From: Marsupella aquatica
Taxonomy: Eukaryota > Plantae > Marchantiophyta
Direction of reading: 5' to 3'
Assembly (NCBI GenBank): GCA_973895155.1
Contig: OZ316893.1
Coordinates: 15,468,645-15,532,644, forward strand
DNA: 64,000 nt
Part shown: positions 23,137 to 51,186 of the stretch, piece by piece
Layout: the number at the start of each line of letters is the position of its first letter
Numbering within the stretch: the first letter of the stretch is position 1
Notes under the pieces: generated by a model
What the model saw: only the letters and a program-made list of their open reading frames with translations
Database searches by the model: none
What the model was told of the DNA's origin: nothing
Translations under genes and position numbers: made by a program

Positions 23137-24984
23137 ATGAATCTTCTGAGCATCAGTAGATCGAGGGCCAAAGTGGTTGTCGGGGTAGATTTCGGCACTA
23201 CGTTTTCTGGATTTGCGTTTGCTCTCACGTCGAAGCCGGATGAAGTGCACAAATTCTACGAGTGGCCTGATGTGGGAGCGGCAGGAGGAGTGAATTATTG
23301 TAAGACACAGTCGAGTATGTTGTACGAAGCGGGACAAAGTCCAGGTTCCTACGTCTTGAAGGACTGGGGATATTCCGCACTTGTCCAACATATGCGGGGA
23401 ATTAGACCTCAACGGCCCGAGCAGATAACTTCCGGCGATAATGCGCTTGGCATTACAAATCAACTTCTTCCAGTTCCTGGACAGGAATTTGCAACGAGAC
23501 CGGCGTCATATTTTCTCACTTTGTTCAAGCTCCATCTGGTCGAATCTGGAAGGACATGTACAGCACCGGCAGAGCTTCCGGAAGGTCTCACAGTAAGGCG
23601 AGTCATCTCCGACTATCTCCGCAAGCTCTCGGAGTTTGCAATGCAAGCAGTCCAAAGTCGCATGGGCGCTCACATCACGATGGAAGATGTGCAATGGTGC
23701 CTCACTGTCCCTGCAATTTGGGATGATCGATCCAAACAAGAGATGAAAATTTGTGCATCCATGGCGGGCATGACGAAAGGTCCAGATTGTCCATTGGATT
23801 CTGCGGAATCCGCAAGTCCACATCCTGTGATAATTGTAATAGAGCCAGAAGCTGCATCCTTCTATTGCCAAAAGAAGGTTCCGTTGGGTCTCAGTGAGGG
23901 AGACAAGTTCTTAATCGTCGACGTTGGTGGAGGAACTGTCGACTTGGTGCTGCACCAGAAAATCGGTGCAGGCTCCGGCCTGAAGGTCCGAGAAGTGTCC
24001 CCAAGTTCTGGTGGGCTCTTCGGCGGATCGTTTGTCGACAAAGCTTTTTTTAATTTTCTGAGTCGGAAGATCGGCTGTTTTAATGAGTTTGCTCGGACTC
24101 ATACCGACTCAGTCCTTAAATTGAAGGGTTGGTGGGAAACCATCAAGTATGGATTCAATGGAAGTATGCACTTCCCCTATGACTTGGAGCTGCCAGCTCG
24201 CCTGGCGCGCGCATGGGAAGAGCATGAGTCTTCAAATAGCATACTTTCCAACATGACAGGCTCTTATGATGCTATCGAGTTATCCCTTGGAGATATGCTT
24301 AGTCTATTTGATCCGGTAGTTGATGAGATAATCAAGCTCATCGAGTCCATCATGATACCAGATTTGATGGCAATGATGATAGTCGGAGGTTTCTCAGGCT
24401 CTCCATATCTGATCGAAAGAATCAAGCAAGAATTCTCTACGAGAGTCGGAGCTATTGTGTTTCCGGACGAGCCAGGAGCTGCAATATGCTGCGGGGCAGT
24501 GTTGTTTGGGGTATATGGAGCAGACCTTGTATGTTCGAGGAAGTCGAAGAAAACATATGGGATCGACACTACTCGCCGGTTTTCCTCAGATGATCCTCGC
24601 CATTTGATGTTTCAGGATGACAATGGAGAAGCACTCTGTGCTGACGTTTTCTGTGCATACACAAAGACAAATGACGAAGTTCCGCTCGATCACTGTGTGA
24701 GTCACAGATTTTATCCTGTCAGTAAAAGTCAGACTGGGATGTCAATCAGCTTATTCTCAACTGCAGATCCTAATCCGAAATATGTGTGTGACCCTGGAGT
24801 CACCAAAGAGAGTACTTTCAGCATTACCTTCCCTAACGAGATCGAGCTAGGTAAAACGCCAGAAGTTTTAATTTCCATGTACTTTGGTCGCACCTTAATT
24901 GAAGTGGTAGCAGAGGGCCAGAACTTCGGCACCGGAGAAACTTTCAAAATGCCGAAGGTGAGTTTTGAGAAAAGCTTCGACTGA
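23137..24984 (+). CDS. Intronless atypical Hsp70 / actin-like ATPase of the HSPA12 type (615 aa)
   Basis: Motifs VGVDFGTTFSGFAF, WCLTVPAIWDD, IEPEAASFYC, IVDVGGGTVDL, GGSFVD, VGGFSGSPYL and YGI, with no C-terminal EEVD, are characteristic of the HSPA12-like subfamily. Confidence 0.9.
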   Translation: MNLLSISRSRAKVVVGVDFGTTFSGFAFALTSKPDEVHKFYEWPDVGAAGGVNYCKTQSSMLYEAGQSPGSYVLKDWGYSALVQHMRGIRPQRPEQITSGDNALGITNQLLPVPGQEFATRPASYFLTLFKLHLVESGRTCTAPAELPEGLTVRRVISDYLRKLSEFAMQAVQSRMGAHITMEDVQWCLTVPAIWDDRSKQEMKICASMAGMTKGPDCPLDSAESASPHPVIIVIEPEAASFYCQKKVPLGLSEGDKFLIVDVGGGTVDLVLHQKIGAGSGLKVREVSPSSGGLFGGSFVDKAFFNFLSRKIGCFNEFARTHTDSVLKLKGWWETIKYGFNGSMHFPYDLELPARLARAWEEHESSNSILSNMTGSYDAIELSLGDMLSLFDPVVDEIIKLIESIMIPDLMAMMIVGGFSGSPYLIERIKQEFSTRVGAIVFPDEPGAAICCGAVLFGVYGADLVCSRKSKKTYGIDTTRRFSSDDPRHLMFQDDNGEALCADVFCAYTKTNDEVPLDHCVSHRFYPVSKSQTGMSISLFSTADPNPKYVCDPGVTKESTFSITFPNEIELGKTPEVLISMYFGRTLIEVVAEGQNFGTGETFKMPKVSFEKSFD

Positions 24985-29312: not shown

Positions 29313-32300
29313 ATCTCCCCCTTGACTCTGGTCTAGGGGAGGGTAAAGACTGCAACCTATATGATTGCTCAGCGGGAAGTTCTGGAAAGAAAAACCAAAC
29401 CGGTTTTTCCCTCTTTATACGAGAGTAGACCAGAACTAAGCCGTAGCCTATACAAGGAATGAGCAAGAGCATATCTCAGTATCTACACAAATGTTAAGTA
29501 ACCATACTTGTGAGGCAATTGCAAAACCTGCAACGCATCACGGTGTCTAGAAAAACTCTCCAAAGGAATCACTTTGGTAAAAGCGTCAGCCGGGTTGAGT
29601 TTACCGTCAATCTTGACTACCTCAAACATATTATCAGACATTGCTTGCCTGATAAAATGGTACCTGACGTCGATGTGCTTCACTCTACTGTCCATCACCT
29701 GGTTCACAGCAAGGTGGAGCGCACTCTGACTATCACAATGGAGCTTCACATTCCCCTGTGGCAATCCCATTTCAGTGATCAGTCTATCCAACCAAATCGC
29801 TTCCTTTGCTGCTTCTGCTGCTGCAACATACTCCGCTTCTGTAGTAGACTGAGCAATACACTTCTGCAAAATAGACCTCCAACTTATGCATCCACCTCCC
29901 AGTGTGAACACATAACCTGTTGTTGACCTCCTCCGATCCAGATTCTATGCATAGTCAGCATCTACATAGCCCATCAATGATCTAGCATTATCAGCATGTG
30001 CATCAAACAATAGACCATGATCCACGGTACCCTTCAAATACCGAATAATCCACTTCACTGCTTCCCAGTGTACCTTCCCTCGATTCAACATGTACCTGCT
30101 CACCTTGCCCATAGCCATGGCAAGATCAGGTCTAGTGCAAGTCATCAAATACATGAGACTCCCCACTGCCTTGTCATACAAAACCTTTGACATCAACCCC
30201 TTCTCAGTGTCATCTGTAGGACAGAACGCTGATGATAACTTGAAGTGTGGAGCCAACGGGGTACTTATTGGCTTGCTAATCCCCATGTTGAACCTTGCAA
30301 TTACCCCTGGGCCCTTAGCGTTACTAATACAGGGAGGAAGTGCGAACGACGCAAGGGTATTTTTAATGTAATGCAAACTAATTTTTATAATAATTTTTAA
30401 AGTCGGCAACATCCCTATATATACATTTGACACAATATTAGTAATAAGGCTCTTATCAAATACATGTCACATTACTCTTATGCAAGGGTACCCAAAATGT
30501 CAAGGACACGCATCACTATATGGTTGGTACACATGTCATGACTTCATTGGCACACCTGTCCATATAGTAAATCACACATTTAATTATTTGTTCTCCTAAG
30601 ACAAGTTTGTGTGCCCCCTTATGGTGGGACAAATGGGTTTTAGTAGACATGTTTACTCGCATTTTTAGGAGTTGAGTCGGGAGTTGAGTAAATGTTGGGT
30701 CGGGATCTTTGGGTCCAACTTGGTTGGGGCGGGGGTTGGGGTTTAGGGATTGATGGGGGATTGATGGGGACCATGGATCAATACCCCCTCCATAGCACAT
30801 AAACAAACAAGATTACTTTTGAAATGGGTTCAATCAAACGGCCAGGTGTGTTTGTGTGTGTGGGGTGGGGGTTTTGTACTCCCTTATCATTGGGGTGAGG
30901 GAGGTATCGGGGGCTGGCCACATTGGGGTTCACACAACAGGGTTTGCGTGACCCTCCCTTGCATTCCCCCTGCTTCTCTGCAGTTTAGGTCGTTGGATTT
31001 TAGACTGGCCATAGCGATCATTTGCTTGTTTGGGCCGGGGTTTGGGCTGCATGCGGCGTTGGATTTCAGACCCGCCATAGCTATGTTTGTTTGTTAGGCT
31101 ACACGCAGGGTCCGTCCCATGTGTATTCTCTGCTCTTGCACACAGTGAACTTATTCTTTCGGCTCCTCGCTTGGCAAAGTGAGTGCATGCCACCCTCTTG
31201 CTACCCCGGGCTTGCTACTTTGCGCGGTTGCGTTAACATGTACATGCCGTGATCTGATGTAACCTCTTTTGATACAGGTTTTAAGGCGGGTTTTTATTTC
31301 AGTCTTGTGTAGCTGACAGTTTTTGCACATGTTCTCACACAGGGCTTTTGGTTGGTGGACTCGGTGAAAGCCAAAGTGCAGGAAGCAAAACCTGCAGAGG
31401 AAGATGCTCGAGCTTGGAAGATATTGCTTTGCATGATCTCTTTTTGTCAATGTAAGTGTTTTGCCAAAAAGCAGCAAAATGCTTCTGAAGATGAGCTTTT
31501 TTATTGCAGATTGCAAGCAATCCATTCTGCAATGAAGCCAGCAACGAAGTAACCTGCATTTGGACAGCGACCCGGGACAGCGATCAATCGATGGCTTGGC
31601 ATGGCGTGGCGTGCGCAAGGAGTAATGCTGTAAGATGACGAGGACCCAAACATTGTAAAGAATATTGAGGGAAGGACGAGGGGAAGGAGCCCTCAATACG
31701 CAAAACGACAGCAGTTGAGTCCAATCATTCATTTGAACTGCCCCCGGAACTGCCCCGATAATTGCATGTTAACAAGTGAGTTGCTATTGACTTTTCAACA
31801 AACAGTTCTTCCATTTGTGATGTTTGTGTCGAGGAGTTGGGCTTGACTTGTCTGCAACAATGCTTACAGTGTACTCGTAGAATGTTTTGTGGCGAAAGAG
31901 ATAGAATGTGTGGTCTGCGTCAATGTTTTCCTTGTTTCGATCAGGCTATCTATTTTCTGAGCCCAACGTCATTTCCATAGCTTTCCTATTATTTAGTAAC
32001 GTAAAGAGCACTGAAGTAGCTCTTCATTTGCTTGGGAATGTTCTATTTCATTGAGACCAGACCAAAGTTTGTGATGGCGCGCTTCCGCTTTGCTACTGCT
32101 GGCGAACATGTTTGTCGAGGATGACAGTAAACAATCCCATTAGTGAGAAGCACAGTTTTGGCACGAGGCACAGGAAGAACCTCTTATATGTGATCAAGGA
32201 TAGCCTCGTTTTTGGGAACCAGTCCGTCAAGCACTGCTCGGCCATCGTGTTCGTCCCCACCACCGTATGTCACTCCTCCTCACCTTGTCACAGAGTTGCG

Positions 32301-33243
32301 TTCTGTGGCTATTTGGAAATTCCTTCATTCATTAATTCCTTGCATGATTTATTAATTCCTTCATTCATTGAAGGATTTGCCTTAGGCAAGAAGGCAGGCA
32401 GGAGTCCCGACAGGAGTTTGTCAAAGGCTACGGGCCACAGAGGAGAAGAGCTAAACGTAGGGGAGAGAGGTAGATCGAGAATCAGGGAAGAGTGTGTGGC
32501 ATCAAAAGAGGTCAGCAAGTATGGACAATTTCATTGTGACAACACTCAGTTATCTCTACTCAGTTAGAATATTGACCAATAATATCTAGTAACTAACTGT
32601 CACTGCGTACATGACAGGATCTAGTCGGAGTTACATTAGCTAGAAGACAGTTTCTCATTGAAGGACGGTCGGCGTGTTTGACAAAAACAGATGTAAGCCA
32701 CTATATTCCTCAATGTATCACACTATAAACCCTTCTGCATTTCCTCAACTTGGATCTGATGATTGCGCATTGCATACTGCGCGACTTTGTTAGTTGTGTA
32801 CCACTGCATTGATTCTATGCCTTTTGTGCCTCTGAGTCTACCATTGTCTTAAAGCCTCAGTCTTCGCTATCTTCTCCGTTGCATTGCCTTCTTTTGGTCA
32901 ACATATCGCTCCAACTACGTTTGGGATTGCAGTGACTGTTACGTGTTCCTTGCAGGTTCCAAATTGACTTCCACAACCTCTGCTTTTGTCTCATTATGGA
33001 AGGTGAAGTTTCCACCATTCCCAGGCATGTTCTTTAAGTTCTTGTTGTCTGTCAAATTTCGGGTAAAATTGTTTATTCTCGGAACACCATCAGTGTAGTT
33101 GAAGTCTACAACATGCGTGCCATGATCGCCATAGTGGGCGATGCTTGAGGCGAGCCGCATCCACATGACATGAATCTTGCGAGATTCATTAAATTAACAT
33201 ACATAGAGCAGTCCAGACGTATCAGTTCAGGGTCCAACCGTAC

Positions 33244-34021
33244 CTATGGACTGGGTAAAGAGCTCTGCTCTAGCTGTATTTAACCCTTGAAGATGAAGTT
33301 CTGGGTAATGCCCTTCAACTTCAGCGACAGCTCCAATCCGATCGAAAAGCGAAATTCCAGCTCCAAAATCTTTCAGCTTCCATTCAGTCCAGATTTTGAG
33401 TCCATTGTCGGCCTTTGCCAATCTCCACCCTACAATTCCTGTCCGGGTCATCGTAACAGACTTGATTTCACATGAAATTATTTTGTGCTGAAATAATACC
33501 TGAATTAACACTGTCGTCAGAAGGTCACATATTTTTGCAATTGTTCTTTCAATTGCTTCTCTGCAACCAGTCACACTGAACGGTAAACCCAGAAGCAAAT
33601 GGCCAATCATTTTGGGAGAATTGAGCTAGAAACACTATTATATAAAGTGAGGCTCAGCGTAGAGACCTTGCGAAGCAATGCCGTGGCTTCCTCCTCAGAC
33701 AGAGGAACAGTCCCTAGCTCTAGCGGCGTGTAGTTCCTCTCCGACAATCCCAGCAACGAGGGAGGAATTAGTATAATATGCTTAGTACCCTCATTGCCAA
33801 GACTTTTCTCACCAAAATTCCAAAGATGGCCACCGCGCGAGAGTATTTGACGACAAGTTGTAGTTGTGCACCCCACGAAATGAAGCCGAGCTCAAAGAGG
33901 CGAGCGCTGAGGGGGACGAGGAGGACGAGGACGTCGCTCTCGCACGGAAAGAAGGTGATGAAAGGGCGGGCGAGTGGCGAAGCAAACTGCTGGAGCAGCA
34001 GATCAGGGACGCAGCAGCCAT
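33244..34021 (-). pseudogene. RAF2: Captured fragment of Rubisco accumulation factor 2 (RAF2/SDIRIP1, PCD-like protein)
   Basis: Transit-peptide-like MAAASLICCSSSLLRHSPALSS..., then after a frameshift or deletion NFGEKSLGNEGTKHIILIP...PLSEEEATALLRK, an apparent intron (donor 33666), and IVGWRL...LKIWTEWKLKDFGAGISLFDRIGAVAEVEGHYPELHL...ARAELFTQSIG ending at a GT donor (33243). No final exon is recognisable. Confidence 0.8.
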
Positions 34022-35684
34022 AGCTCGATTTCCTTCAGCTTTGTAGATCTCATCGAGCACCGCTTCCTATATTCTCTTCGCCTTCTCTCTGCCTCCTACA
34101 CACAATCATCCGGGGAGTGTTCTTTTATTTGGAGACTGTAGAGGGCTCCAAGTGATTTCAACCCGGTTTGGACTTGTCCCCGGCTCAGTCCAACTTTGCC
34201 CAGTCTAGCAGACTATCTCTTTCGCTGGTTTATGAGATCAATTTTCTCCAAGTCTCCAGCTGCTCTACCTTGGTATCCACAACTTGACGCCAACGTACAG
34301 TAGTTGGCCGGTATTTTTGGCAGTAGCAGGACTAAAATTATCGTAGAATAGATGCTAAACTATGGTATCTTGTTGATATTTTGTAAGATTCTCTTTGTTG
34401 GTGGATTTGTACAGGTCTTGAAGTTTAATCAAGATTAGAATACTATCAATGAATGCCACCCCTGGTCAAGTTATTCTCGGCACTTCTATACTATATTACA
34501 GGTTTGTTTTCTAATTGCTTGTTATCTCTGTTTTGTCAACTGCCAAGAAGTCCAGGACTGTGGCTAATGCTTTTTGCATCTCCATTCATTCATTGTTGTT
34601 TGTCTGGAGCAGGCTTGTTGTTGTCGACTTCCAATGTGGATCTAGTTTCCGTCCCTGACCCGTTCAAGCAGCCAATGCAAATACACAAGTAAGTAAAGAA
34701 TCAGTGGTGCCTCTTCTTGCAGTCAGATGCCCTACTTTCATTTTGCCCTGCATTCCTGATTGTACGTTGTCTCTTGTACTGTCGATTCATGCTTGTTGTC
34801 TTGTATGAATCCGCTTACAAACAGGGCTTTGTGTGTTTGCTCAGGTAAGCATTTCTTTATGTTTTGTGAATTAGGCTTTGTCTTTCTGTTGTAGAAGTAG
34901 GACCGTTTGCAGGTCCCATCAAATCCAAGGAGACCATTGGGGAAGTAATGCCCTCAGTGGAGATTGTCAGATTTCATCCCTGACAATCTAGCGCTCTTTG
35001 GAGGCGAAGCAGGTGCAGGTAGCCTGGGAGGGGGGGGGGGAAGATTGCTTAGAGCCTTGCCAGATAGGATTTGGGTGGTCCATGGAATGTTGCTATTCAT
35101 GAATGGTCGAGCCTCTCTGAGCGAGTCTGTGAGTAAATAAATTTTGATCAGCCCATTGCACATGTCGAGGAGAGGGATTGGAGTGATGGGCCTGGCCCCG
35201 ACTGCACATGGACCAAGCACAGACTGGGACAAGCTAATATGTTGGGACAAGCTAATTCAGGACAAGCTTAAATGGCCATGTGCAGATCTCATACTCTCTT
35301 GTGCTTACGCTGAAACCAGAGTCCTTGCATGCAAAGGGTACGTCCCTTCCCACCCGAAAGGAGAAAGCTGCAATGGATCTTAGACAAGCCAATTACCATG
35401 AGAAATGGCCGGGATGGGGCAAGGCCCTTGTGGAATTGGTCTGGTGGATGCCGTCTTGACATATGGGCTTCCTTAGGCTACTTGTAGGAGGCCAAAACTT
35501 CCCAAATCCCCATGTTGAGCAATGTCATTGAATGGGTTGTTACAAAGTAACCCATAATTGGTTGAAGTGTTATGATTGTGTCCATTTTGATTGTGGTGCT
35601 TCTCTCTTGTCTTGTGCTATGTTTGCAGGCCTATGCCCCTAGCATATGTCAATTGGTTAGGGAATTAAACGTTGGACATAGAGG

Positions 35685-38600
35685 ATGCCGCCTGCCACTG
35701 TATTTCAAGCAGACTCTGAGTCAGGGGAACGGAAACCCCTGACATCATATAGCTACAAGATAGGTGAAACCTTTTATGATGCTAGAAAGAACTTGGAGTC
35801 AGGTTTTGACTTCGAGTTCCATTTCATGGACATCAACCTTGCTTGTAGAATGTTGGAGAAATTTGAGAGGTATAATCTGGTAGAGGATTGTGGTGGGAAG
35901 ATTGTCATTATCCCAAAATACCCCAACAATTTTGTCCAAGGAGATGTGCAGAATGGGTCACAACAAGTCCTTGGAAGTAGCCATGCATCCAATGGACCTG
36001 GTAGCACATCTTGTGGTACTCCCACAATAGATGAACCCTCTAACCAGCATGTAGGTGGCGCTCCATCTCAGGAGGCCCAACCTGCAAGTACCCCATCCCA
36101 GGATGGCCAGCCTATTGGTGGAGCCCCATCCCAGGAAGTTGAATCACAAGTCAGCCTAGAGTCTGAATTAATGTCTCATGACCTCAAAATAGCATGGGAG
36201 ACTTCTGTGACGAAGTTGATAGAGTGGATGACTTTTATTAAGTGTGTGGACCACAAATGGAAAGTCAGAACCTGGGACAAGGATGGTGTGCCTCGTGGGC
36301 ATATTGAGTGTTGTGAATGTGACTTCAGATATCAAGCAGTTGCATGTAGCAGTGTCAAGGGTGTGGATAAAACTATGGTCAATAATGTGTTTACAAACTT
36401 CAGAGTGAAACATTTGCCATCAAAAAAGCATGCTCGACGTGTAGCATCTAATAGGGGTGAGAAAGTGGATCACAGAGAGATTTCTCAGAGGGCTGAGGCT
36501 TGTACTCTGAATGATAGAGCCATACTTGATCAACATGTCAAGATTGTGGAGAAGATAAACTCAGCACAAATTGCTGGTGGGCTTGTTGGGTGTGATACCT
36601 TTACAGTAATAGGTGATGTGGACAAAGAGCCCCTAGAGTTGATGAAGTTCAAACTTCGTTGTGAGTTTTGTGCTGAAAACTTGACATTGATTCCAAAACA
36701 ACGCAATTTGGAAACAAATTTGGAAGCCCATGTGGGAGGCTTAAGTCATCTTAACTATGTCATGAGAAGTCAAAAGCCTGCTAGGGGTAACCCAGTGCAC
36801 AGTGGAAGGCCTGGAAGACCTCGTGCACCAGATGGAAGGGATGTGAAACAACAGAAAATAGTTGGGTTCTTAACTCGCCCCTCAACTGGAGGAGCTTCCA
36901 GTTCTAGTTCAAAAGACAAAGGTACTCTTGACAATCTCTCTTTGCTATGCTGGGGTCTCTGGCGTGATGTGGTGAAATATGGTTCAGATACCAGGCCTAT
37001 CAAGGAAATTTTAAATGATCAGCTTAAATTAGATGGGAACTGGTATGCGGAGCCCATAGTGAGGGCAGAGGTGTGGTGTTTGACGACTCAGGAAAACTGT
37101 GTGATCTCTGGTTTATTTAGACACAGAGAGTGTAGACGAATTTCGGAACTTGGTGGTGGGTTTATAGACTTATCCTGTACGCAATGTTTTAGCATAAAAA
37201 CAGAGCAGGACTTTCGACTCAGAGTTTACAGGGAGTACAAAGCTCTTGAAAAAAGAGGTTGTAGAACTACTGGTAAAGGTAGGCGCTTAGACTATTTGAC
37301 TATTCCAGAGGTCCAATACCAAGCTAAAAGTTATAGGAACCAAATTTTGAGAGAACGAAAGTTACAGAGAATCTTGAGTCACAAGCTACTCATGGCAAAG
37401 GCTCTGGTCCCCAGCATTAGTGAAGTGTGTCTTCACTATGAGGAACCAAACAAAGCAACTGTATTGAAATTCTGTCATTCAATAATATTGGCACACAAAC
37501 GAGGTGCCTTTGGTGGGAGAGGAGCTCTGTGGGATATGTTATCAGACATAGCACAGAACATCAATAGGGAGAAGACAGGATATCGTTTTAGGCCTGGAAC
37601 AAAACTTTTTTGCCAAACACTGTTTTTACATGGCGGAAGACGTGTAGTTGATTGTCTTGCAACCAATGGAATTGGTCCCACTCTCAACACCCTTCAAAGG
37701 GATAAGAGAGGCATGGTAGTGTTTCGTGCTGGAATTCATGTAGAGCAATTTCAGTTTATTGCGGAAGTATTTTCCAAATTGAAGGCTCGATTAAATATAC
37801 ATGGACCCATTCCATGCTCGGGGGTTTCACTTCCACAAAAATGGCACATCACGTGCGACGAAGTATAGGGTCGATTTATTGGTTTGAAGGGAAGACTTAA
37901 GAATTTTTGTAGAAGAACAATAGGGTCCTTTAAATTCAATTTTGAGACTTATAAGAATATTAGGGTCTTTTAAACCAAAATTTTGGAATATTCCAAGAAT
38001 ATTCCAACTTTATAGGGGTTGAAAAATAAATTTTTTTTCTTACATTTTAGGGGGTCTGAGGCCTAAAAACGTCGCAGGGGATGGGGAGACATCCATATAG
38101 TGAGACCCCTGAGATTCCATGCTTTTTGGCAGAGGACGAGACTTGTGTGAAGAGGACTGTGAGGTGACTATTCACTGCCTCCTCTTGCTCTAGTCATTCT
38201 TTTCCTTCAGTATGTATTTTTGTGCTACACAAAAATATTGAACAAGAACTAATGAAGAAGCCACCTGCTATTGGTTGCAGATGGCTGCCAAAACATGATA
38301 CTCTTCTTGGATTTTGTGGGACAAAAAAGGATCATGAGTGCAGTGTTGGCTTGGAGATCATAGTGGGGGAAGGAGAAGTTGGCTTCAACAACATTGCAGA
38401 TGCATTTGACAATTATGTTATAGCTCACCAGGCAAGGTGTTTGATAGTAAATGCCCTTGTTGCTGGATTCCCTCGATTGTGCATACTGGGGATGGGCACC
38501 TGTAACAAGTTTGATGCTCCATGGGTCAGGCGACAATGGAACAGCCTAGCCTCACTGTGGACAACTCATTGCCTAGAGTGTGTGGGGCCATTATTGGGTC

Positions 38601-40696
38601 ATGCAAGCGATGGGGATGCACGAAGGAGAAAGCTTATGTTGGAAGACTACTCTGGAAGTGGAATACCAGGGCCAAGGCAGGACCTAAGGTGGGAAGCTTG
38701 GAAATTGACCCACTCTATGACCACTACTGGACCATTGATCCATGCATATGGATTGCATGATCAAGATTTTATTCATAATGGGAAGAAGTTAGTGAACCCA
38801 TTGGATTCTACTTCTCGTATTTTGAAATTAGGAGCGGAAATGGCAAACCTGAGTCACATCATATCCTGTTACAAAGTGTACCTGAACAGTGATCATGGCT
38901 TGAATGAAGAGGACAAGTCAAGGAAAGACAGACAAAATTGGGCTAGTGCACAACGACTCTGTAGTCGCAAAGTACAGTCCTCCTTACGGATGCTTCGCCA
39001 ACGTGGTGATGCAAGAGTTGAACAGACTCTTGGGACAGAAGTTTACACTAGGATATGTGCAGACTACATTGACATATTTCTGAATACTAGTCTGAGTTTG
39101 CGACAGAGGATTGTCCATTGTGGGAAGGTGGGGTTCTTCTTTAGACTATGGCGTCAATGGTGCTTTCATGGAAACCATTCAGTGGGAGGGAATACACAAC
39201 CAATCAGTTTCACAAAAAATTGCATTCCCATGCAAAGTTTCCTTGACATTCAGATGTCAGTTCATTTTGTGGTCCTGTTGGTAATCCAATTCAGAGACAA
39301 TTTTTGACATCTTCCAGTGCCATTGCATTTGACTGGGTCAGATGCTTGTGAGCAGTTTTTTTCTGCTGTAGGAGGTATGAATGGTCATGAACGAAGTTAT
39401 GACTTGGCTGAGTTAGTAGAATGTGCTACCAATCGAAATCGATTGGCTGCAATGGATCTGGCAGAAGGAATGATGGGTGCAGGGAAGAGTCACAAGAAAC
39501 ATGAAAACATTTGGATGAAGCTCACTACAATCCCAGCAGGAATTCCTACTGTAGCAGATCAAATGGACTATATAGGGATTGAAACCAATGGAGAAATAGT
39601 GATTGCACTGCAAGAAGGTTTTCAGCTTGCCCAAAATGCATGCACTGAATTACAAATGAACCCTTCCACATCTTGCAAAGACAAGGTGTGGTGGAATTCC
39701 CCATGGAAGATGGAGGCTAAAGGGGTCAAGTTTGGTAGTTGGTGTGATGTGAATGTTGATACATTAGTAGATGGAGGGACAGATGTGGAGGAATCTGAGG
39801 AAGGTGAAACAACCTCTCATGAGCCTGCATCCTCATCTACTTCAACAGAAGTTGTAGAGCCTGAGGACTCTGAGTTACCTGTCCCAACAGAACAACTTTT
39901 GATATATGTAGACCCAGATGTAGAGGGAGTTGCTGCTCAAATGGAGGCCACCATGGGGATCATGCATTCTGACTTGATATATGGAGCAGCAACACAAGAT
40001 GTGAAGCCAACCGTTGAATACCAAAATCGGTCCATTTACAAAAGTACTTTGGTCAGCCAACTGACCCACAACCCTCTCCTCAGCAAAGACAGATTGACTC
40101 GGATAAAGCAAAATCACTACTTCAATAATTTAGTGGACAAACCCAATGTTAGGGCAGGTGTTCAAACAATGTTTGTAACAGTAGGTTCAGATTGTGGAGT
40201 ACTATTCTTGGATGATACATACAGTGCTCGTGAAACTAGAAGTTCAGAAGCAATTTCACGAACATTGAGAGGAAAAGGACAAAGAAAGAGAGGAAGCAGC
40301 AGATCAGATGATTTTGTTCCAAATCCGAAGAGGCCAAGAGGTGCAGCTGTGGCAATGTATTCAACTACAACACCAAAATATATGTGGTGGATAGGCAGAA
40401 TACAAAGTATACACAAAAAATATGGTGGGAAACAGGACAGAGCAAGAGGTGAATTGGATTTGCTTGATAGGCCTGGTGGTGAGGAGGCATGTAAAATTAT
40501 GTTCCAATGGTTTTCTCCAATTGGAACTAGTAGGCATAAATTTGCCTACAATGTGTGTGATCCACAATTTATCGATTTGGACTGTGTCATATCAACAGTC
40601 CACTTGACAGTGGATCCACTATGCCCAGGAGTTTTTCAATTGCATCCAGATGATGCAGTTTCTCTTGATAATTTTGCCAAAAACAAAATTCAGTAA
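35685..40696 (+). pseudogene. P-element-like (THAP9-related) DDE transposase, ~1,530 codons after repair; disabled by a MITE insertion and one in-frame TGA
   Basis: Joining 35685-37816, 38122-38163 and 38281-40696 (117-nt GT-AG intron 38164-38280; TGA at 39305) gives one frame. Motifs in order: LAEDET, GFCG, HASDGD, DQDFIHNGKKLVN, DRQNWASAQRL, GSDACEQFFS. These parallel the P-element motifs DE, SD, DxxHxxKxxRN and QDxxExFF. Two N-terminal CxxC...H-x5-H zinc fingers. Confidence 0.75.
37817..38113. mobile_element. 297-bp MITE inserted in the P-like transposase CDS
   Basis: TIRs CTCGGGGGTTTCAC / GTGAGACCCCTGAG (12 of 14 match). Perfect 8-bp TSD ATTCCATG (37809-37816 and 38114-38121). Removal restores HGPIPCFLAEDET. 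Confidence 0.93.
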
Positions 40697-41020
40697 TCTT
40701 ATATATGTAACAGGGTAAGCAATTTTCAGTGTTTATGCATGTATCTTTTAAGTTTCTGATTGCTATGAAAGGCTTTTGAATGAGATTTTGATCCTGCCTC
40801 TGACATTTCAATCCTTGTTGGATCACAGAGTTGACAGGGAAATTATCCACCATGTCTAAGTAACAATTTCAGTCAAAGAAGATGTTATGGTATTACTCCC
40901 ATATTTCTCAGTATTGATTTCCTTGTGTTATGAGTATTGTCTAGAATCAATTATTAATGTGTGGTTTGATAAATCAGGTTCAGAAGAAATTGCCAAGAAC
41001 TTTGCCATCATTTGGTGTGA

Positions 41021-41120
41021 AGGATGAAGGCATTACCTGGTTTGGATAGGTCAGGATGAAGGCATTACCTGGTTGGTTAGCTCAGGATGAAGGCATTACC
41101 TGGTTGGTTAGCTCAGGATG
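41021..41120. repeat. 31-bp tandem repeat x3 in the 3' region of the P-like element
   Basis: aggatgaaggcattacctggttggttagctc units start at 41021, 41053 and 41084, with a partial unit at 41115. Confidence 0.9.
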
Positions 41121-44100
41121 GAAGAATTTAGCATGAGTGTATATGCAATTGTTCCTCTAGGGTACTAGAGCATCATATTCACTTTCTTAGATGTAGTATT
41201 AGTTTAGTTCACCTTTCGGCATGATGTCTATAAGTAACCTGATATATTATTATCTGGTACTAGTTTTGTTTACCTATATAAAAGGTGTAGCCTGTGTAAG
41301 ATCAAGTTTTTGATGCAAAACAATATCAATATGCATAATCTATATTTATGATTCTGAATCGTTTGCATGTTTATATAGCATTCATACTTTTAAAAAGTCA
41401 AGGGTGTTTTCAATTATTTGGAAACCTCTTTTATAAGTTACTCAAGGGTCAAATTTAATAGTAAAAATTAATATTTTTATATTAACAAGAGATATTTTAA
41501 TGAAGAAAAAAATATTAAGAAGGGGTACAAGGGGGGGTCTGTTCTCAGGGGGGTTCACTTAATATACTAAGAGTGAGGGCCCAGGGGCAATTACCTTCCT
41601 CGCATAACTGCTCTACGTCAACCATAGCTTGCCAGCCTCCAAGTCCCTAGTGATCTCCATACCCAAAATCCTCTTAGCTGGCCCTAAGTCCTTCATCTTA
41701 AACTCTGCACTAAGTAGTGCCTTGAGCTTAACAATCTCAGACCTATCCTTGGCCGCAATTAGCATGTCATCCACATAAAGTACTAAAACAATGAACCCAA
41801 AGACAACATTCTTTACCGGTTTAAGATACACACATGGGTCAAACACACTCCTGTGAAAGCCTTGTGCATGAATCCAATCATCAAACCGCTTATTCCACTG
41901 GCTTGGTGACTGCTTCAACCCGTACAAGGATCTCAGCAATCTACAAACCAAATCCTCTTGCCCTTTCTTCACAAAACCTAGCGGCTGTCTCATGAAGATT
42001 ACCTCTTCCAAGGTGCCATAGAGGAAAGCTGTGACAACATCCATTTGATCTAGCAACAGACCAAACATAACAACAAGCACACACAATAGCCGTATTGTTG
42101 AGTACTTAGCAACTGATGAGAAGACCTCATTATAATCCACACCTTTTTCTTGTGTGAATCCCTTGGCTACCAACCTAGCCTTGTAGACCTTCGATCCACC
42201 TCCTATGGACTAATCCTTCAGCTTGTATATCCACTTGCTGTCCACCACTTGCTGTCCCTTAGGCAGCTTGACAAGCTCCCAAGTTTTGTTGTCCTTCAGT
42301 GACTGCATCTCCATTTGCATTGCTGCAGTCCACTCCTGCTTCTCCTTTGAAGCACTTGCTTCATGAAATGAAGAAGGTTCACCTTCTTCCAAAATCAACG
42401 CATCACCCTCATCGTCAGTAACAAAATCCTCCTCTTGCAACTGAGATGAATCAACCCACTATCCATACCTTGGTGGAGCGCGTACAGTGCGACCAGATGC
42501 TCTTCTAGCCGATGACTGCGGTTGATCTGCGTGTGCTGGTACAATTTGAAGCTCAACAGCATCCACTTGCTGCTCACCAGCATCAACAAACTCCTCTGGT
42601 TCCTCTGGCACAGGAACCAACTCCATAAACTCCATCAACAAACTCCTTCTCTCCGGTCATGCACCTCATGACCAATCTCCCCCTCAACGAGATCCGGGAT
42701 AGGAGATTTTCCTTTGTCAGTACGGGAGACCTGAGTATTCTCCCCCTCTTTCAATAATCTGGATTCATTGAAGAAAACATCCCTACTGACAACGAGCTTA
42801 CAGGCAATAGGATCCCATAGCCTATAGGCTTTCACACCACTTTGGTACCCAAGAAAAACACATTTTTTGGAGGTAGGATCCAACTTGGTCCTATTCTACT
42901 TTGGTGTGAAAGCATATGCATCACTTTCAAAAACTACCAAGCCATGATAGTCTGCTTGCCGCTTATAGCGCATCTCAAATGGCATTTTGAAATTGATAGC
43001 ACTAGAAGGAGAAAGATTTACCAAATAAGTTGCGGTATTGACAGCTTCTGCCCAAAATTCCTGTGATAAACCTGATTGGCTCAACATACTCCGCGACCAC
43101 TCCAATAGTGTCTGATTGAGCCTCTCAGCGACACCATTCTGCTGCGGAGTATAAACTATGGTGAGATGGTGAGTTATCCCCTGTTCTGAACAGTACTCTT
43201 CAAATTCCACTGAAGTGTACTCCCCGCCGTTGTCTGACCTCAGACTCTTCACCCTTGTATCCAAACACTTGACCGTGTTTCCAGTTTGATTCTCCACCTG
43301 GGCCTTCCACTTCTTAAAAATGGACAAGACAGATCAGACTTAAGCGTCATGAAATAAATCCACACAAATCTTGAGTAATCGTCAATAAATGATACATAGT
43401 ACAACTTTCCAGAGTGTGAGGGAGTTGGGGATGGATCCCACACGTCACTATGTATGTACTCAAGAACCGCTTTGGAACGATGAGTTCCAACATCGAAAGC
43501 ACGACGATGCTGCTTTCCAAGAATGCAATGCTCACAAAACTCTAATTTACAAGATTGCAAATCAGAGATGAGTCTATTCTTCCGTAAGATAGCCAAACCC
43601 TTCTCACTCATGTGGCCTAGCCGTGAATATATGCCACAATTGAGTCATCTCCTTGTGAGACTTGGTTACATTGGCCTCTCCACATACAGTATTGCCTTGC
43701 AACATATACAAATTCTTTTGTCTGCTCCCTGACCTGACTGACTTGAAGTTCACCATCAACAACGCTCCATTGATGACCATTTGAATCCAACACACCGAGT
43801 GAAATCAAATTCTTACGCATGCCAGGTACATACCTGACTCAGACACTGTGCGCACAGTGCCATCAAACATTTGAATCTTCACAGACCCAATACCCTCTAT
43901 TTGACAAGAGTGATCATTTCCCATCAGAACTGAACCGTTTGAAATAGAGTAAGAATGAAAAACTCATGAATGTAACAAATGTGAAAAGAGCAAGCACAAT
44001 CAAGAATCCACACATCATCTACTCTCCGAAGTGACATGCACAGGGCATACCCCTGGCTTCATAATACATACTCATCATTGAGTAAATCATCATCTCCATC

Positions 44101-44155
44101 AGCCCTAGCCACATTTGCCGATGAAGATTTAGTTGCCTTTCCCTTACAGTCTCAA

Positions 44156-45363
44156 CATGATTTCCGACCAAACGAGAACTATTTTCGCATGCAAACGAGA
44201 AGTGTGTTTTCATTTTCCACCAAATCTCGCGAAATCGGTGGTTTTTTTTATCAAAAACAGGTTTTGGGGGAAATAATGTAATCTGTATCGGAGTTTGGAT
44301 TGAATCAGGAAATTCAGGAATGGAACCCTAAACCTATATCGGACTTCGGATTTCAACCATGAAAGTTTTGACCGAATCTCAATTTCCCCAGTTTTTGGTT
44401 ATTTACCGTAATTATTTTACATCACAGTCGATAAGAAATTACCGCACAGTTTGTCAAAATTACCTTGCAGTTATCTCCACAATTGACCATAGTAACCACA
44501 TACATGCATAGTCAATATGCCGTTGTCTCAACAACAATGCGCAGTCCGATAAAATTATCGTGGCAACTCCGAACGGCAAAAATACTTGCCAACAATACTA
44601 AGATCCTTCGGTTCATCGGTTAAATTTCAAAATTGCAACTATCCATATTAAGAAAACACTTTTTGCAATACCAACATCAGATAAATTTATCGCTGCAATT
44701 TCAAAATTGCAACTTTCCATATGAAGGAAACACTTTTTGCAATACCAACATCAGATAGATTTATCGCTTAAATTTCAAAACTACATAATTTCTCCACGAT
44801 GCACGTGTAAGAATCAAATTGGAAATCCAAGAAGTATACCCTTCTTTGCTATTTTGTCGTTTAGTGAGACGGCCAATCAAAAGTGGCCACGTGGGCCAAC
44901 CCCTCAACAGACACTATAAAAGGGCCACCGCCGATAAGTTTTTGGCGTCATTATCGAGAGTAGAGTTTCTCAAGTTGTGTTCTTGGAGCAACATTTTGTC
45001 GGTTGAGCCATTCGTTTTCCCTGATTGAGGGAGGAATGCAAAGCCCCATAGTGTCTCGAATAGCCATGTCTCAATCAGACACAAATTCACCTTCAAGTTC
45101 AGTTGAATCCTCTCCTAATGTTGTCGCTCGTTGTTTGCCAAGTTGCATACTTAAAGCTCTACCTCTCTCACAGCAGATAGTGCCCAAATTTTCTAACGCT
45201 GATGCAAGTTCTGGTCCTGAGCCCAGTTCTTACTATGTGTCGCCTAGTACACCTGAGAAGCGTCGTCTCTTGAGCGTTCCATCGCCAAGGAATGAGAAAA
45301 TTACAATCCCAGGTTTAGGTCTGAGACGCGCTTCAGGCCATCCATCCCGGGTTATGGAGAGGA
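44156..45363 (+). mobile_element. Left end (1.2 kb) of a DNA transposon, copy 1, interrupted by a second copy of the same family
   Basis: Begins CATGATTTCCGACC exactly where the Copia gag breaks. It is colinear with 45365-46833 and stops at ...gttatggagagga, where copy 2 starts. Confidence 0.75.
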
Positions 45364-47559
45364 ACACGATTTCGGACCGAACGAGAACTATTTCCTCTAA
45401 ACGAGAAGTGTATTTTCATTTTCCGCCGAATCTTCCAAAATTGGCAGTTTTTTTCATCAAAAACACGTTTTTGGGGAAATAATGTAATTCGTATCGGAGT
45501 TCAGATTAAAATAGCAAATTTAATAATGATCAAAACCAATGAAATTCATGCTAACAAACATTCATATTATCAAGGAACAATTAGATCTGAAAAACTTTCT
45601 CCTCAACCTCATATTCACGCTCTCCAAAAATATATGAACTTAGGTCTTATCTATAAATCCATATCCACGTTTCGAGCCAAGTGCGATAACTGTATCGGAC
45701 TCCGGATTTGAGCCATGAAAGCTCCGACCCAATCTCAGTTTTCTCAGTTTTTTGATATTTACCAAAAATATTTTACATCACAGTCGATAAGAATTACTGC
45801 ACGGTTCGTCAAACTTACCTTGCAGTTACCTCCGCAATTGACCAGTTACCTCCGCAATTGACCAGTTACCTCCGCAAGTGACCATAGTCAACATGCCATT
45901 CTTTCAACAGCAATGCGCAGTCCGATAAAATTATCGTGAAAACTACAGGCGACAAAAATACTAGTCGACAATACTAAGATCCTCCGGTTCATCGGTTAAA
46001 TTTCAAAATTCCTATCCATATGAAGAAAACTCTTTGCAATACCAACATCAGATAAATTTATCGCTTCAATTTCAAAATTGCAACTTCCATATGAAGGAAC
46101 CACTTTTGCAATACCAACATCAGATAAATTTATCGCTTCAATTTCAAATTGCAACTTCCATATGAAGGAACCACTTTTGCAATACCAACATCAGATAAAT
46201 TTATTGCTTCAATTTCAAAACTATATAATTTTGCCACGATGCACGTGTGAGAATGAAATTGGAAATCCAAGAAATATACCCTTTTCTGCTATTTTGTCGT
46301 TTAGGGTGACAGCCAATCAAAAGTGGACACATGGGCCAACCCCTCAACAGACACTATAAAAGGGCCATCGCCGATAAGTTTTTGGCGTCATTATCGAGAG
46401 TAGAGTTTTGGGAGTTGTGTTCTTGGAGCAACATTCTGTCCGTTGAGCCTTTCGTTTTCCCTGATTGCGGGAGGAATGCAAAGCCCCATAGTGTCTCGGA
46501 TAGCCATGTCTCAATCAGACACAGATTCACCTTCCAGTTCAGTTGAATCCTCTCCTTCCAGTTCAGTTGAATCCTCTCCTAATCTTGTCGCTCGCTATTT
46601 GCCAGGTCGCATACTTAAAGCTCTACCTCTCTCACAGCAAATAGTGCCCAAAATCTCTGACTCAGATTTTGATGCAAGTTCTGGTCCTGAGCCTAGTGCT
46701 TACTATGTGTCGCCTAGTAAACCTGAGAAGCGTCGTCTCTTGAGCGTTCCATCGCCAAGAAATGAGAAACTTTCAATCCCAAGTTTAGGTCCAAGACGTC
46801 ACTTCAGGCCATCCATCCCGGGTTATGGAGAGGATATCCGGCAACCGATACGCATATCGCAATCGGCATTCAAGTCGCCACATTCAACACAAGTTCAATG
46901 ACGGATCTTTCAGTCTCCGGGTGAGGATCGGGACACAAAAATACAAAGACCGATACGGCGATCGGTCTTTGCATTGCCTGGACTGGATGTGCGAGCAAGC
47001 GAGGGAATCGGACTGCGAAGTTCAGACTCGGCCCTTTCTCGAATGGTCCGTGGGAATCGTGGTGAACAAGTGCTCAATTTTCCAGCAACTCGCGGAGTCG
47101 TTGGGACTGCACGTGCGAATCCAGAATCTCCAAGTTCTCAAGGGCGGACTGTCATTGGTTCTAGGCTCCAAGTATCGAGGAGAGGTCTTAGTGGCGTTTG
47201 GGTTATGTATAGAGAGCCACGGAGTCCAATTGTGTTTTCAGATGAGTCGAGTGCATCGGAGGACAAAGATGAGGAAGGAGATAGAGAATCCAATATAATA
47301 GCACAAGTTGTGTCTGAATGTTTAGAAGGAGCTGTCAAAGAGAATAGTTATAGTCGTCTATTTAGTGCCCCTCTAAATGCGTCAAGGAGATCTATAGAGG
47401 ATGGTAGCTCAGCAGAGAGTGATGCATCTATTCGCGAGGCACCTGAAGGACCCGAAAATGCCAATGTTATGAACGGATTTCAGGCTGTAGAGAAGTCAAA
47501 TGAGCCTAGTAAAAAAGATAGGGACCAAATTACTAGGAAAGACAATGTGACAAATGACA

Positions 47560-48180
47560 AATTGAATAGAAACAAAATGAGATAAATTCATAAGTATTCG
47601 TGTTGTGATAATTACTGTCTGAGGAATTTGGGTCTGCTAGCCGTGACGAAACAACGCACTTATTACTATGGGCTATCCTACCCAGAGAAGAATGTCCTTC
47701 TAAGAGGATGTGTGAAGGGTGAGCATGCTGGTGCAAGTGGTTACTCAGTTAGCGGTAGATCCTTTTGTCGGAGTGGTTTTAAGAAATTATTTTCACTAGG
47801 AAATAATCGTCTCCAAAAAATCTCGTAGAACATGTTTTCTCGGATACAGATCGGTACAGTTTGTCGAGAAAAATCACCCGCACATCTTGGTCTCGTCCAA
47901 TGGCTGGATGATTTTTTTTCCACAAATGTCGAGAGTCTTCCCAACAAGGATATCTTTCATTTACCTGACAATTGGACAAAAACAGAAGTTTTTGATGCCT
48001 GCCAGTCTGAAACTCTAATGCGCCAAGAACAAGGCATGACATATTCGTGGTTTGTTCGCATTTGGAACAAGGAGTTTCCTCGTGTGCGCATCCCCAAAAG
48101 GAGCCGTTTCTCCACCTGCGCCCCGTGTATTGAATTCAAAGCACTCCGTGACAAGGCAACACTCGAAGCAGAAAAGAGTA
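47560..48180 (+). pseudogene. N-terminal part of a Sola-like (DUF7869-associated type) transposase, truncated before the catalytic domain
   Basis: YSVSGRSFCRSGFKKLFSLGNNRL, then after a stop WLDDFF...HLP...YSWFVRIWNKEFPRVRIPKRSRFSTCAPC. These resemble the VCxxxF..lgI..rl and FxxxW...F...CxxC motifs of Sola-type transposases. Confidence 0.55.
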
Positions 48181-48470
48181 AGTTTCTAAACTTGTGTGTT
48201 ACTCCCGATAATTTTATCGGGTTGAGTATTCATGTGCTTCTTCTTTGGTCATGTGAGTGAATATATCGTTTGAACAGTTTGAATACTAAACCTGATAAAT
48301 TTATCGTTGTCACAGTTTTTCATTACGGTCTTGTGTTTGAATACTGAACCTGATAAATTTATCGTTGTCAGGGTTTATCATTACGGTCTCGTGTTTGAAT
48401 ACTGAACTTCCCCGACACAAAACATTTACTCAACTGACACAATTGACATCATTGTTGTTAGGCGGTTTCG

Positions 48471-51186
48471 ATGGATACTGAGGCTCCATCGACAGTTGAT
48501 GGAGTCGTGGGTGTCGAATCGATACAAAACACGGTAGAACCACAGGTCCCAGTCAATGTACTTGGTAAACGTAGTGCAAAGAAACCTTCTAAGGTAGCAA
48601 CACCTCCTGCATGTGATGAGAAGCCAAAAGCCTCTAGAGGCAAGAATGTTGAGAAGCTCGTGGAGTCTTGGGATACAGCAGAGTTCCAAAAGGATGCATC
48701 TTATTTTGCATTGACGTTTGGACTCCCCGATGAAGGCGAGAATCCGTATAAGATAAGTGATATTCGTGACAATGATTTGGCTGCATGCTTTGGAGAGAAA
48801 AAAAGGAGCGGTTATAAGCTGAATAACTGCGTAGGTGTTCCCATTGAAGACATACTACATCTATCCCAAGTTGTGGATGGGTATGAGAAACCAGTGAATG
48901 GAGTTTTGGCTCATACATTTGTGAAAGGGGCCTACGCTGAGCGAGTTCTTCATAGGAAAGTCAATTGGGCAGGATATGCGGCTGCTAAGCTGAAGGGACA
49001 GATTTTGCAATGGGAGCAAGAGGGGAAAGGTAGGCCTGATGGGCCTCCTTGTGTCTAGAAGCCATGTTTCTACCAACCGCCGGTGCCTGAAGAGTTTGAT
49101 ACAGAGACTAAGGATGTAGTTCAAGCAATTCAGAGAGCCTCCGCATCAACTGATGCATCCAAGGAGTTGAAGATCTGCCTTTGGGATAATGCAGCTGGTG
49201 CGATGGACATCGGGCAGAGCAAAGCGGATACACACTTGTCTTTGGACAGTTTGGACATCCCGAAGGTTCATTTCATTCCTGAAGCTGGGCCCCCTGCACT
49301 GTTATTGGGAATTCTTGACTCTGCAATATTGTTAACAGAGATCCGACTACGTGAGACTCACCAGGATTTTGCTACGGTTGAAACAAGCTTGGAGAGACTA
49401 CATATGTCTATACGGGATCACCCAAGAACGCTTGCAAAACTCAGTGATGATTTCAGAACTAGGGAGATGGAGGTAGCTGAAGTTGGGCAGAGCATAGAGT
49501 CAACAGACAACGCAATTGAAGAACTTACGACTGAGCTTGAGCTAGAGCAAAACACAGAAGAAGTCGAGAACAATGAGGTATTAATATTTGTTGCTTAAAT
49601 TCTTGCTAAGTTTGTTTCTTAGATGTGTAAGAGAATGCATAGCGGAGCCTTTCCCTGAAGTGAAGCGTAATGTACTCTCAAGTATGTCATTGCTAGTTTG
49701 CAGCAACCACATTGTCAATCTATAGTTTTCCATGCTACGTAGCTAGACCTGTATTGCGTTCCGCATTTGTGTAACTTAACAGTGTAGACTGTTAGTCCAA
49801 CAATCAAGGTACTAGAATCTTACAATGGAAAGTGCTTCTTGTCCATGATTACAGGGGATCACTCAGTACACATTCATTTTGGAAGACCGGCTTAAGGCTG
49901 AAAAGGCAAAAATTGTGGAGTTGAAGGAGCGCCAAGGAACCGTTGTGAAGGAGTTGAACACATTGGAGCAGCTCATTGAAGTTGACCGGAAGCGGTATGA
50001 GACCTTGCCAGGGATGGTGGACCGATTGAGAAAAGTGGCTGCAGTACTGGAGTTGAAATTGAAGGAACTCAAGTTAGCCGAGGGAGCTCAAAGGTCTGAA
50101 TATTCTACTTTGGCAGCGGTACTTGGCAATCCGTGTCCGCAATTGAGACCCACCTTTGTTGCAACATCAGCTCATGCAAAGGCAACCCAAGTTACAGTAT
50201 TGGGTTGTCCAGTTTGTTGCAATGGCTATCATTGTTAAAATTGGATCCTAGCATCGTGTGGGCACACCTATCATCCAAGCTGCCTATTTCGTTTGATTGG
50301 TGGTAACTCAGAGACTGCTCCAAAGTGTTTTGCTTGTGGGACACTTTTCTCTAATGATTGGTTGCAAAGTTGGGGCTTGCCCATCAAGGGAGATCCGGAG
50401 CAGACGCGTGTTTCTTACATCGAAGACCTGAAAGAAGTGTACGGGAAGCACAGTATTCATCTTGGAAAACGAAGACAACTTGGAGAGCAAATGCAATATT
50501 TGCAACAAAGGGTACATCTACTTTTGTCTCAACTGCATTGTATTACCTCTCTACTTTGTATCAATCTTTTGTTTGCATTTATCTTCACCTACTGTAGAAA
50601 ACCCATTGCATCGGTTGAACTTCATTGAATTCATAATGCATGGCATGTGTTGACACTTGAAATAATTAAGAGAATATCTCAAGTCACAGTCATCCATCTT
50701 TTCAGATTAGAAGAAATTATGACAAAGTTGAGATTATCATCGATCAGGTGTCAGCATTCAATTTCCTCATTATTAATTTGGTTGTATGTATGTGTCCAGG
50801 AAAATGTCTATGCCCAAACAGAAATCTTCTTGAGTTCTTCAGAGGCTATCTTATGCAAACCGGCTGATGACAGTGAAGACCAGTCATCTAAAATGCCTTT
50901 CTTGACACCCAAAGTGGAGGGTGCGGATTTGAAGAAAAGACCGAGGGCTGTGGGGACTGTGGAATCCGCTAGGAAGGTGACAAGTAGATCTTTGACAAGT
51001 TTAGAGAATAACACGATGCCCTTTAACCCAGAGTCTCCATCTCAAGTTTCCTTCAAGCGGATGTTAGAACTTGTTGAGGCTGTCCCTGGACATCCAAACC
51101 CGGAATTGCCCCCACCTGATGGAGTGAAGAGTGTTTGCTCTAAACCATCAACCAAGTCCAGAAAGAAAATGGGGCTTTATCCTTGA
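48471..51186 (+). pseudogene. Multi-exon TE accessory gene: KVNWA-type domain + coiled coil + RING-H2 finger, with premature stops
   Basis: Consecutive plus-strand ORFs separated by in-frame stops and GT-AG introns. The RING-H2 pattern CPVC...(stop)...SCGHTYHPSC...CFAC lies at ~50205-50340. Confidence 0.65.

Follow-up and report, generated by a model that had tools for sequence, protein, structure and literature searches.

A DNA transposon of 11,282 bp, most likely a member of the P superfamily, interrupts a Copia retrotransposon in the genome of the liverwort Marsupella aquatica. It lies at positions 30305-41586 of the 64,000-nucleotide stretch analysed here (NCBI GenBank assembly GCA_973895155.1, contig OZ316893.1, positions 15,468,645 to 15,532,644 of the forward strand), hereafter the window, and is complete-ended, with 11-bp inverted repeats and 8-bp direct repeats as its borders. 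Between these borders we find a truncated host gene piece (33242-34021, minus strand), a broken transposase gene (35685-40696, plus strand) that holds a nested miniature inverted-repeat transposable element (MITE; 37817-38113), and, in the 3′ non-coding region, a 31-nt unit that occurs four times (41010-41134, plus strand). An Rfam scan of the element returned no matches.

The terminal inverted repeat (TIR) is perfect over 11 bp, CCCTGGGCCCT, and is found at 30305-30315 on the plus strand, where a family end signature extends to about base 15, and at 41576-41586 on the minus strand. This pair is the highest-ranked inverted repeat of the region. An 8-bp target-site duplication (TSD), GCAATTAC, occupies both flanks, at 30297-30304 and 41587-41594. 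Because the TSD starts with G and ends with C, an alternative arrangement at 30304-41587, with a 12-bp TIR and a 6-bp TSD, is equally compatible with the copy itself. Assembled contigs from four public runs (two studies), aligned to the window, settle the choice. Among the matches listed, 18 contigs diverge from the left end at 30305, seven at 30304, two at 30303 and two at 30310, with some flanks recurring between runs. Since most contigs diverge at 30305, the 8-bp TSD is favoured and the same end is seen at several other insertion sites; the 6-bp reading was rejected. The borders proposed from the letters of the window alone, 11-bp TIRs and an 8-bp TSD around 30305-41586, are thus borne out. 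Moreover, unambiguous 8-bp TSDs flank both the nested MITE and a related element at locus L004, and all three duplications fall within the 7-8 bp range given for the P superfamily in a passage of PMC3698922.

Thirteen ends, picked by pattern scan from the window and six loci, align as C-N-C-N-GGG-N3-(T/G/C)CACT, and an ACGTGCG-like motif recurs approximately 33-41 bases inside the family ends. The length of the TIR varies between copies, from 11 bp in the window element to 15 bp at L001 and 26 bp at L004. In the animal P/THAP9 subgroup the ends generally begin with CA. Here, an A at position 2 is seen in only two of the 13 ends (as CAC), and none has the CAT of Drosophila P or the CATAC with which zebrafish Pdre2 starts. 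The 11-mer occurs perfectly a third time at 556-566 of the window, where the family signature does not follow it, probably by chance. Separately, the first 60 bases of L025, a contig with a distant relative, contain a G-run and then TACTCCC, which resembles the family end signature without its first bases.

The interrupted Copia element is on the minus strand, and its reverse transcriptase (RT) is broken in frame. The downstream side (29483-30296) retains the RT end and an RNase H-like part, the upstream side (41595-43644) retains GAG-pre-integrase, integrase and RT, and both contain stops; the flanking Copia matches PF07727 with an E value of 7e-52. When the flanks are joined over a single TSD copy the RT frame is restored, and therefore the element is younger than the Copia insertion. 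The clean insertion that had been claimed is accordingly upheld, and activity after the arrival of the Copia is supported both by the restored frame and by the contig ends at other sites. Self-comparison of the window did not reveal a long terminal repeat pair for the host Copia. It is scarcely credible that the structure arose by misassembly or from repeats that happen to pair. No listed contig spans it entirely and one further perfect 11-mer exists at 556, but the two bases that delimit the TIR and the TSD are also those at which the Copia frame is restored, all 30 bins of the element region are covered by contigs in all four runs, and relatives share the ends.

The transposase gene and its predicted fold

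The gene can be modelled from an ATG at 35685 as 1,529 codons once the nested insertion of 297 bp and a GT-AG intron of 117 bp have been removed, leaving a single internal TGA at codon 1067 (39305-39307). The 5′ part (35685-37816) encodes a ubiquitin-like domain, a disordered linker, two CxxC/HxxxxxH zinc modules, a third Cys/His cluster, a coiled coil and a helix-turn-helix (HTH) region. A short continuation (38122-38163) carries the first catalytic Asp (EDET, D716) and is followed by the intron (38164-38280), whose position is inferred from colinearity with homologs. The 3′ exon (38281-40696) encodes an RNase H fold with a P-type insertion domain, in which the premature TGA is followed by C-terminal helices, an acidic linker and a conserved C-terminal domain; all parts lie on the plus strand. 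The gene model is validated by uninterrupted relatives that align along its whole length, with homologs of 1,492 and 1,523 amino acids aligning in a single piece to residues 5-1526 and 28-1527, respectively, at 35-38% identity. A repairable transposase of about 1,530 codons with ordered motifs had been predicted, and the repaired protein does contain the five motifs in the order given: EDET at 715, SDGD at 834, DFIHNGKKLVN at 887, DRQN at 941 and SDACEQFFS at 1078. The window copy itself is dead, its gene being broken by one stop and by the nested MITE.

The candidate catalytic residues are highly conserved in the family. Of 96 full-core rows, all have D716, 93 have D835 and 94 have E1082, whilst D887 and H890 of the C/DxxH signature (887-890) are found in 94 and 95. 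The active-site set of the 3′ exon comprises D835, the DxxH at 887-890, D1079 and E1082.

Residues 1-82 are predicted to form a ubiquitin-like beta-grasp, matching many ubiquitin-fold chains with Z scores of 7-8 and rmsd of 2.2-2.6 over approximately 70 residues, which assigns a fold and nothing further. The first zinc module lies within a region resembling the HPF fold (Z 7.2, rmsd 3.1, 87 residues aligned), and the third cluster is made up of H480, C483, C498 and C501, its three cysteines being present in at least 90% of 60 rows. In the predicted model a long helix (540-574) and a helical bundle precede the RNase H fold as the coiled coil/HTH region. The sequence-only reading had described two fingers in place of a THAP domain. 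Both CxxC...HxxxxxH fingers are present, whilst the THAP C2CH pattern (C-x2-4-C-x35-55-C-x2-H) was not found in residues 1-720, no THAP family matched in Pfam, and no THAP fold was listed in the N-terminal fold searches, though residues 1-82 dominated these. The replacement is nevertheless less unusual than was implied, as absence of THAP is expected in plants. A passage of PMC7776569 describes the domain as limited to animals, and therefore its absence rules out only the animal P/THAP9 subgroup. That same reading listed the ends and motifs correctly but missed the ambiguity between 6-bp and 8-bp TSDs, the MITE nature of the 297-bp insert, the captured gene, the ubiquitin-like domain and the third Cys/His cluster.

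The C-terminal domain (residues ~1300-1529) was present in 111 of 365 proteins searched, many of them near-copies. We presume from its pattern some likeness to BAH/SH3-type barrels, which was not confirmed by Atlas, PDB or Pfam: the Atlas gave no usable match, a PDB profile search no relevant match, and Pfam only DUF3104 (E 0.01, three of 30). Five distant relatives (P0057, P0066, P0114, P0113 and P0088) bear other accessory domains, namely Tudor (PF21743), SAP, C1_2 and a weak PB1, suggesting that accessory domains have been swapped across the lineage.

For the fold test we used an AlphaFold model of the homolog P0010, which is 51% identical over the core (pLDDT 79.9). Foldseek placed Drosophila P transposase (6p5a) first with an E value of 2.7e-8, the next family being Hermes at 7.9e-3. 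VIA-align superposed the model on 6p5a with Z 24.8 and rmsd 3.2 over 378 residues, a match that covers residues 167-567 of the Drosophila transposase (DmTNP) and hence its HTH, RNase H and GTP-binding insertion. Other comparisons gave Z 11.2 for Transib (rmsd 5.2, 382 residues), 10.3 for RAG1, 8.4 for the IS256-type ISCth4 and 8.3 for Hermes (rmsd 7.7, 301 aligned). An ordinary plant hAT element, or one of MuDR or Kolobok type, is therefore very improbable. An RNase H DDE fold with an insertion domain is common to Hermes, Transib/RAG1 and ISCth4, and hAT elements also make 8-bp TSDs, but the structural match of all of these is much weaker (Z 8-11, rmsd 5-8), and no hAT, BED or MULE family was found in Pfam scans of the window proteins and their relatives. 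Kolobok and Dada are excluded only indirectly, the comparison list holding no solved structure of either. Because the homolog fold matches Drosophila P far better than any of these, insertion domain included, the element is best regarded as P-type and not hAT, as had been proposed before any structural comparison was run; a best structural match to hAT or another known family, the outcome that would have overturned that proposal, did not occur.

Matches at the level of sequence are fainter. The family profile aligns weakly (E 0.21) to residues 93-248 of DmTNP, the HTH/leucine-zipper side, and in doing so puts EDET on D230. Two Pfam families of P elements were recovered among relatives, PF21787 by four of 36 (best E 2.6e-4) and PF12017 by three of 48, above the cut-off in one (P0116). 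In the ESM Atlas the nearest named clusters contain TNP-like families. A phmmer search of the window protein against PDB gave no matches, and the four PDB matches of profile A1 were all spurious.

With Drosophila P (6p5a/6pe2) and the wider superfamily (P, 1360, Galileo, Pdre2 and THAP9) the window family shares a coiled coil, an HTH, a split RNase H with helical insertion, the DDE positions, an Asp three residues before the last Glu (the D528/E531 spacing), 8-bp TSDs, short TIRs and terminal C...G. Associated MITEs are also common to both, as exemplified by BuT5 in a passage of PMC3698922. In contrast to Drosophila P, the window family has a ubiquitin-like domain and zinc modules instead of THAP, a transposase of ~1,530 amino acids with an extra conserved C-terminal domain, ends of the form C-N-C-N-GGG and a land-plant host. 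The nucleotide pocket may differ as well. A passage of PMC7776569 gives D528, K385, K400, V401, S409, F443, D444 and N447 as the GTP-binding residues of P transposase. In a sub-threshold profile alignment to 6p5a, the D528, D444 and S409 contacts appear kept and K385 is not aligned, whereas K400, V401, F443 and N447 appear changed to N, W, I and L, respectively; the column equivalent to N447 is hydrophobic throughout the family. We lean slightly towards GTP use having been retained by this transposase.

Relatives and the place of the lineage

A word search identified 87 relatives among 6,430 candidates, and a profile search recovered 5,485 representatives at E<=0.001, of which 996 remained at E<=1e-30. 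Species names were attached to 22 of the 87 and comprised Riccia fluitans (10), R. sorocarpa (8) and the fern Adiantum nelumboides (4), with no seed plant named. FastTree analysis of 156 cores placed the window, nine Riccia and three Adiantum rows in one clade of 49 with support of 1.0. A quick IQ-TREE run on 62 of the 156 recovered the same clade (SH-aLRT 100), in which Riccia lies next to the window (92) and the Adiantum rows branch separately (99). Both trees were rooted at the midpoint, with canonical P left out. The distinctness of the lineage, previously only suspected, is supported by this clade. The tree fits descent from a land-plant ancestor without proving it.

It is possible, though we think it rather unlikely, that the P classification is right and yet the plant copies arrived through one or more horizontal transfers. 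The named hosts, which are limited to two species of Riccia and a single fern and include no seed plant, would suit such an origin, as would the related sequences in marine metagenomes and in a fungus. On the other hand, the named plant rows form one clade, within which the window joins Riccia and the fern rows stand apart as host relationships predict, identities are only 35-52%, and no close non-plant donor was seen.

We scanned 33 loci for TIRs and TSDs and found one clear complete element, L004. It measures 6,096 bp, is bordered by TIRs of 26 bp and a TSD of 8 bp, and has a frame that stays open over 1,520 codons. Three further loci (L011-L013), >99% identical, stop at the same signature but each have a flank of their own, suggesting recent movement in another host. 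More distant relatives came from marine metagenomes (L034 and L035, by their record names) and included a basidiomycete Ulp1-fused protein. None of the 86 pattern matches in viral contigs was a relative. Of 18 matches in prokaryotic genomes one was, L081 (36% identity); its contig, of 2,113 bp, belongs to an archaeal genome assembled from a metagenome and is probably mis-binned eukaryotic DNA.

We conclude, with a probability of roughly 85%, that the window holds a complete-ended, now broken cut-and-paste transposon with a predicted P-element fold, likely representing a branch of the P superfamily that lacks THAP and has probably been in non-seed land plants for a long time. Several observations weigh against this. 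The three transposase ORFs of the window match no P family in Pfam, the fold match comes from P0010 and not from the window's own catalytic core, identity to DmTNP is 12-14%, and the mapping of the GTP residues depends on a sub-threshold alignment. At L001, where the TIRs are 15 bp long and a frame of 1,517 codons is open, there is no TSD. Moreover, the omission of canonical P and THAP9 sequences from the trees bears on whether the family falls inside or beside the P superfamily, and the case for descent from a land-plant ancestor is limited by the midpoint rooting, by the lack of canonical P and by tree rows that mostly have no host name attached.

The low identity to DmTNP would also suit a separate sister superfamily of P-like mechanism that also takes in the basidiomycete Ulp1-fused elements, an arrangement we consider improbable. 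In its favour, the N- and C-terminal domains differ from those of P, the ends have their own signature, the N447 equivalent is replaced by hydrophobic residues, and the family is large (the 996 representatives noted above). By sequence it is also nearer to the Ulp1-fused protein of Mycena vulgaris (P0248) than to DmTNP. HHalign finds homology to that protein across 528 columns (probability 98.7, 18% identity), and the DGT/DGD, QDxxH, DRQD/DRQN and SxxCExxF motifs of the two align, though the fungal protein carries a Ulp1 peptidase domain where the window protein has a ubiquitin-like fold and zinc modules. Against separation, the domain order and the whole catalytic fold, insertion included, are the same as in P, as are the 8-bp TSD and the terminal C...G, and weak matches to three P-specific Pfam families recur. 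Furthermore, a passage of PMC5751038 shows fungal P families already placed under P in Repbase, from Pucciniales and Allomyces only. The most likely placement of the element is within the P superfamily but not in its animal THAP subgroup.

MITEs, a captured host gene and the neighbourhood

The nested 297-bp insert (37817-38113) has family-type ends and its own 8-bp TSD (37809-37816 and 38114-38121), and contigs that skip it were found in three of the four runs. As its ends match the family signature, it is likely a MITE moved by the same lineage. Summed contig depth in the MITE bin is tens to >100 times that of the transposase, which is a hint only and not a copy number. Elsewhere in the window, degenerate right halves of related MITEs at 6158-6333 and 6684-6894 (right ends 6333 and 6894) are 75-77% identical to the 297-bp element and carry the family signature; no left ends or TSDs were found for these two.

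The passenger on the minus strand (33242-34021) is a truncated gene piece of the plastid pterin-4a-carbinolamine dehydratase (PCD) family (PF01329, E 1.6e-9), which we take to be RAF2/SDIRIP1-like. It is made up of a transit-peptide-like part (34021-33845), a second part (33819-33664), a retained intron and a third part (33436-33242). Approximately 30 codons have been lost internally with a change of frame, and the last PCD exon was not found within the element. Its sole match, one of 24 candidates, was a protein of Calypogeia fissa at 88% identity, and this, together with the GIL1/IRKI gene and the CACTA element of the window, points to a land plant as the host, probably a leafy liverwort. 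Near-identical contigs cover the passenger region in all four runs. A scan of 59 of the 60 other frames of at least 45 amino acids in 30305-35690 left the PCD match and one sub-threshold domain of unknown function as the only hits. Pack-MULE and Pack-CACTA are Pack-type elements that capture genes. The window element is like them in having an intron-containing, truncated host-gene piece between its TIRs, but unlike them it also encodes its own P-type transposase.

Outside the element, two host genes in divergent orientation are found, an HSP70-like open frame (23086-24984, plus strand, 632 amino acids) and a GIL1/IRKI-domain frame (20650-22014, minus strand, 454 amino acids). A broken CACTA/EnSpm element with Transposase_21, DUF4218 and DUF4216 occupies 53826-60220 on the minus strand, where a SET-domain frame (59606-60220) on the same strand follows these domains, possibly making it a SET-carrying CACTA. 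A CxxC frame without a Pfam match (47829-49598) is a possible further transposase, and just upstream of it lies a tandem duplication of ~1.3 kb whose copies are 82-88% identical (44154-46834). Lastly, 61196-61776 is a near-perfect tandem array of ~142-bp units with a strong C-rich skew.

Proposed mechanism and implications

We propose that the ends would be recognised, through CNCNGGG...CACT and the subterminal ACGTGCG-like site, by the zinc modules and HTH in the place of THAP, whilst the coiled coil would pair transposase subunits. D716, D835 and E1082 would excise the element and join it to target strands at points 8 bp apart. As GTP does in P, a purine nucleotide held by the insertion domain likely positions the terminal 3′ G, in a pocket that appears altered. 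The ubiquitin-like and C-terminal domains are likely protein- or chromatin-contact modules. Intact sister copies may supply transposase in trans both to the window copy and to the MITEs. Struck by the MITE and a nonsense change after its insertion, the window copy would now be movable only in trans.

P elements are regarded as mainly animal transposons, and algal P families also exist. In the literature that we searched, no land-plant element of the P superfamily was found described, a search that did not cover Repbase, Repbase Reports or Dfam. We tentatively go further, at a little under even odds, and suggest an undescribed THAP-less P-clade that has been inherited since the liverwort-fern ancestor and is active in some hosts. 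It would drive abundant MITEs and capture genes by means of a re-tooled transposase (ubiquitin-like domain, zinc modules, reader-like C-terminal barrel and altered nucleotide pocket), and would have been missed by Pfam-based and standard repeat annotation. With its compact length of 6.1 kb and uninterrupted frame, L004 is a candidate plant-derived cut-and-paste tool. For one liverwort genome, PMC12130436 records no elements under 'Mirage, P-element, Transib' and leaves 25.87% of the sequence unclassified. If the clade is general in non-seed plants, it would add an extra superfamily to the land-plant repertoire, and its MITEs may account for part of that unclassified fraction.

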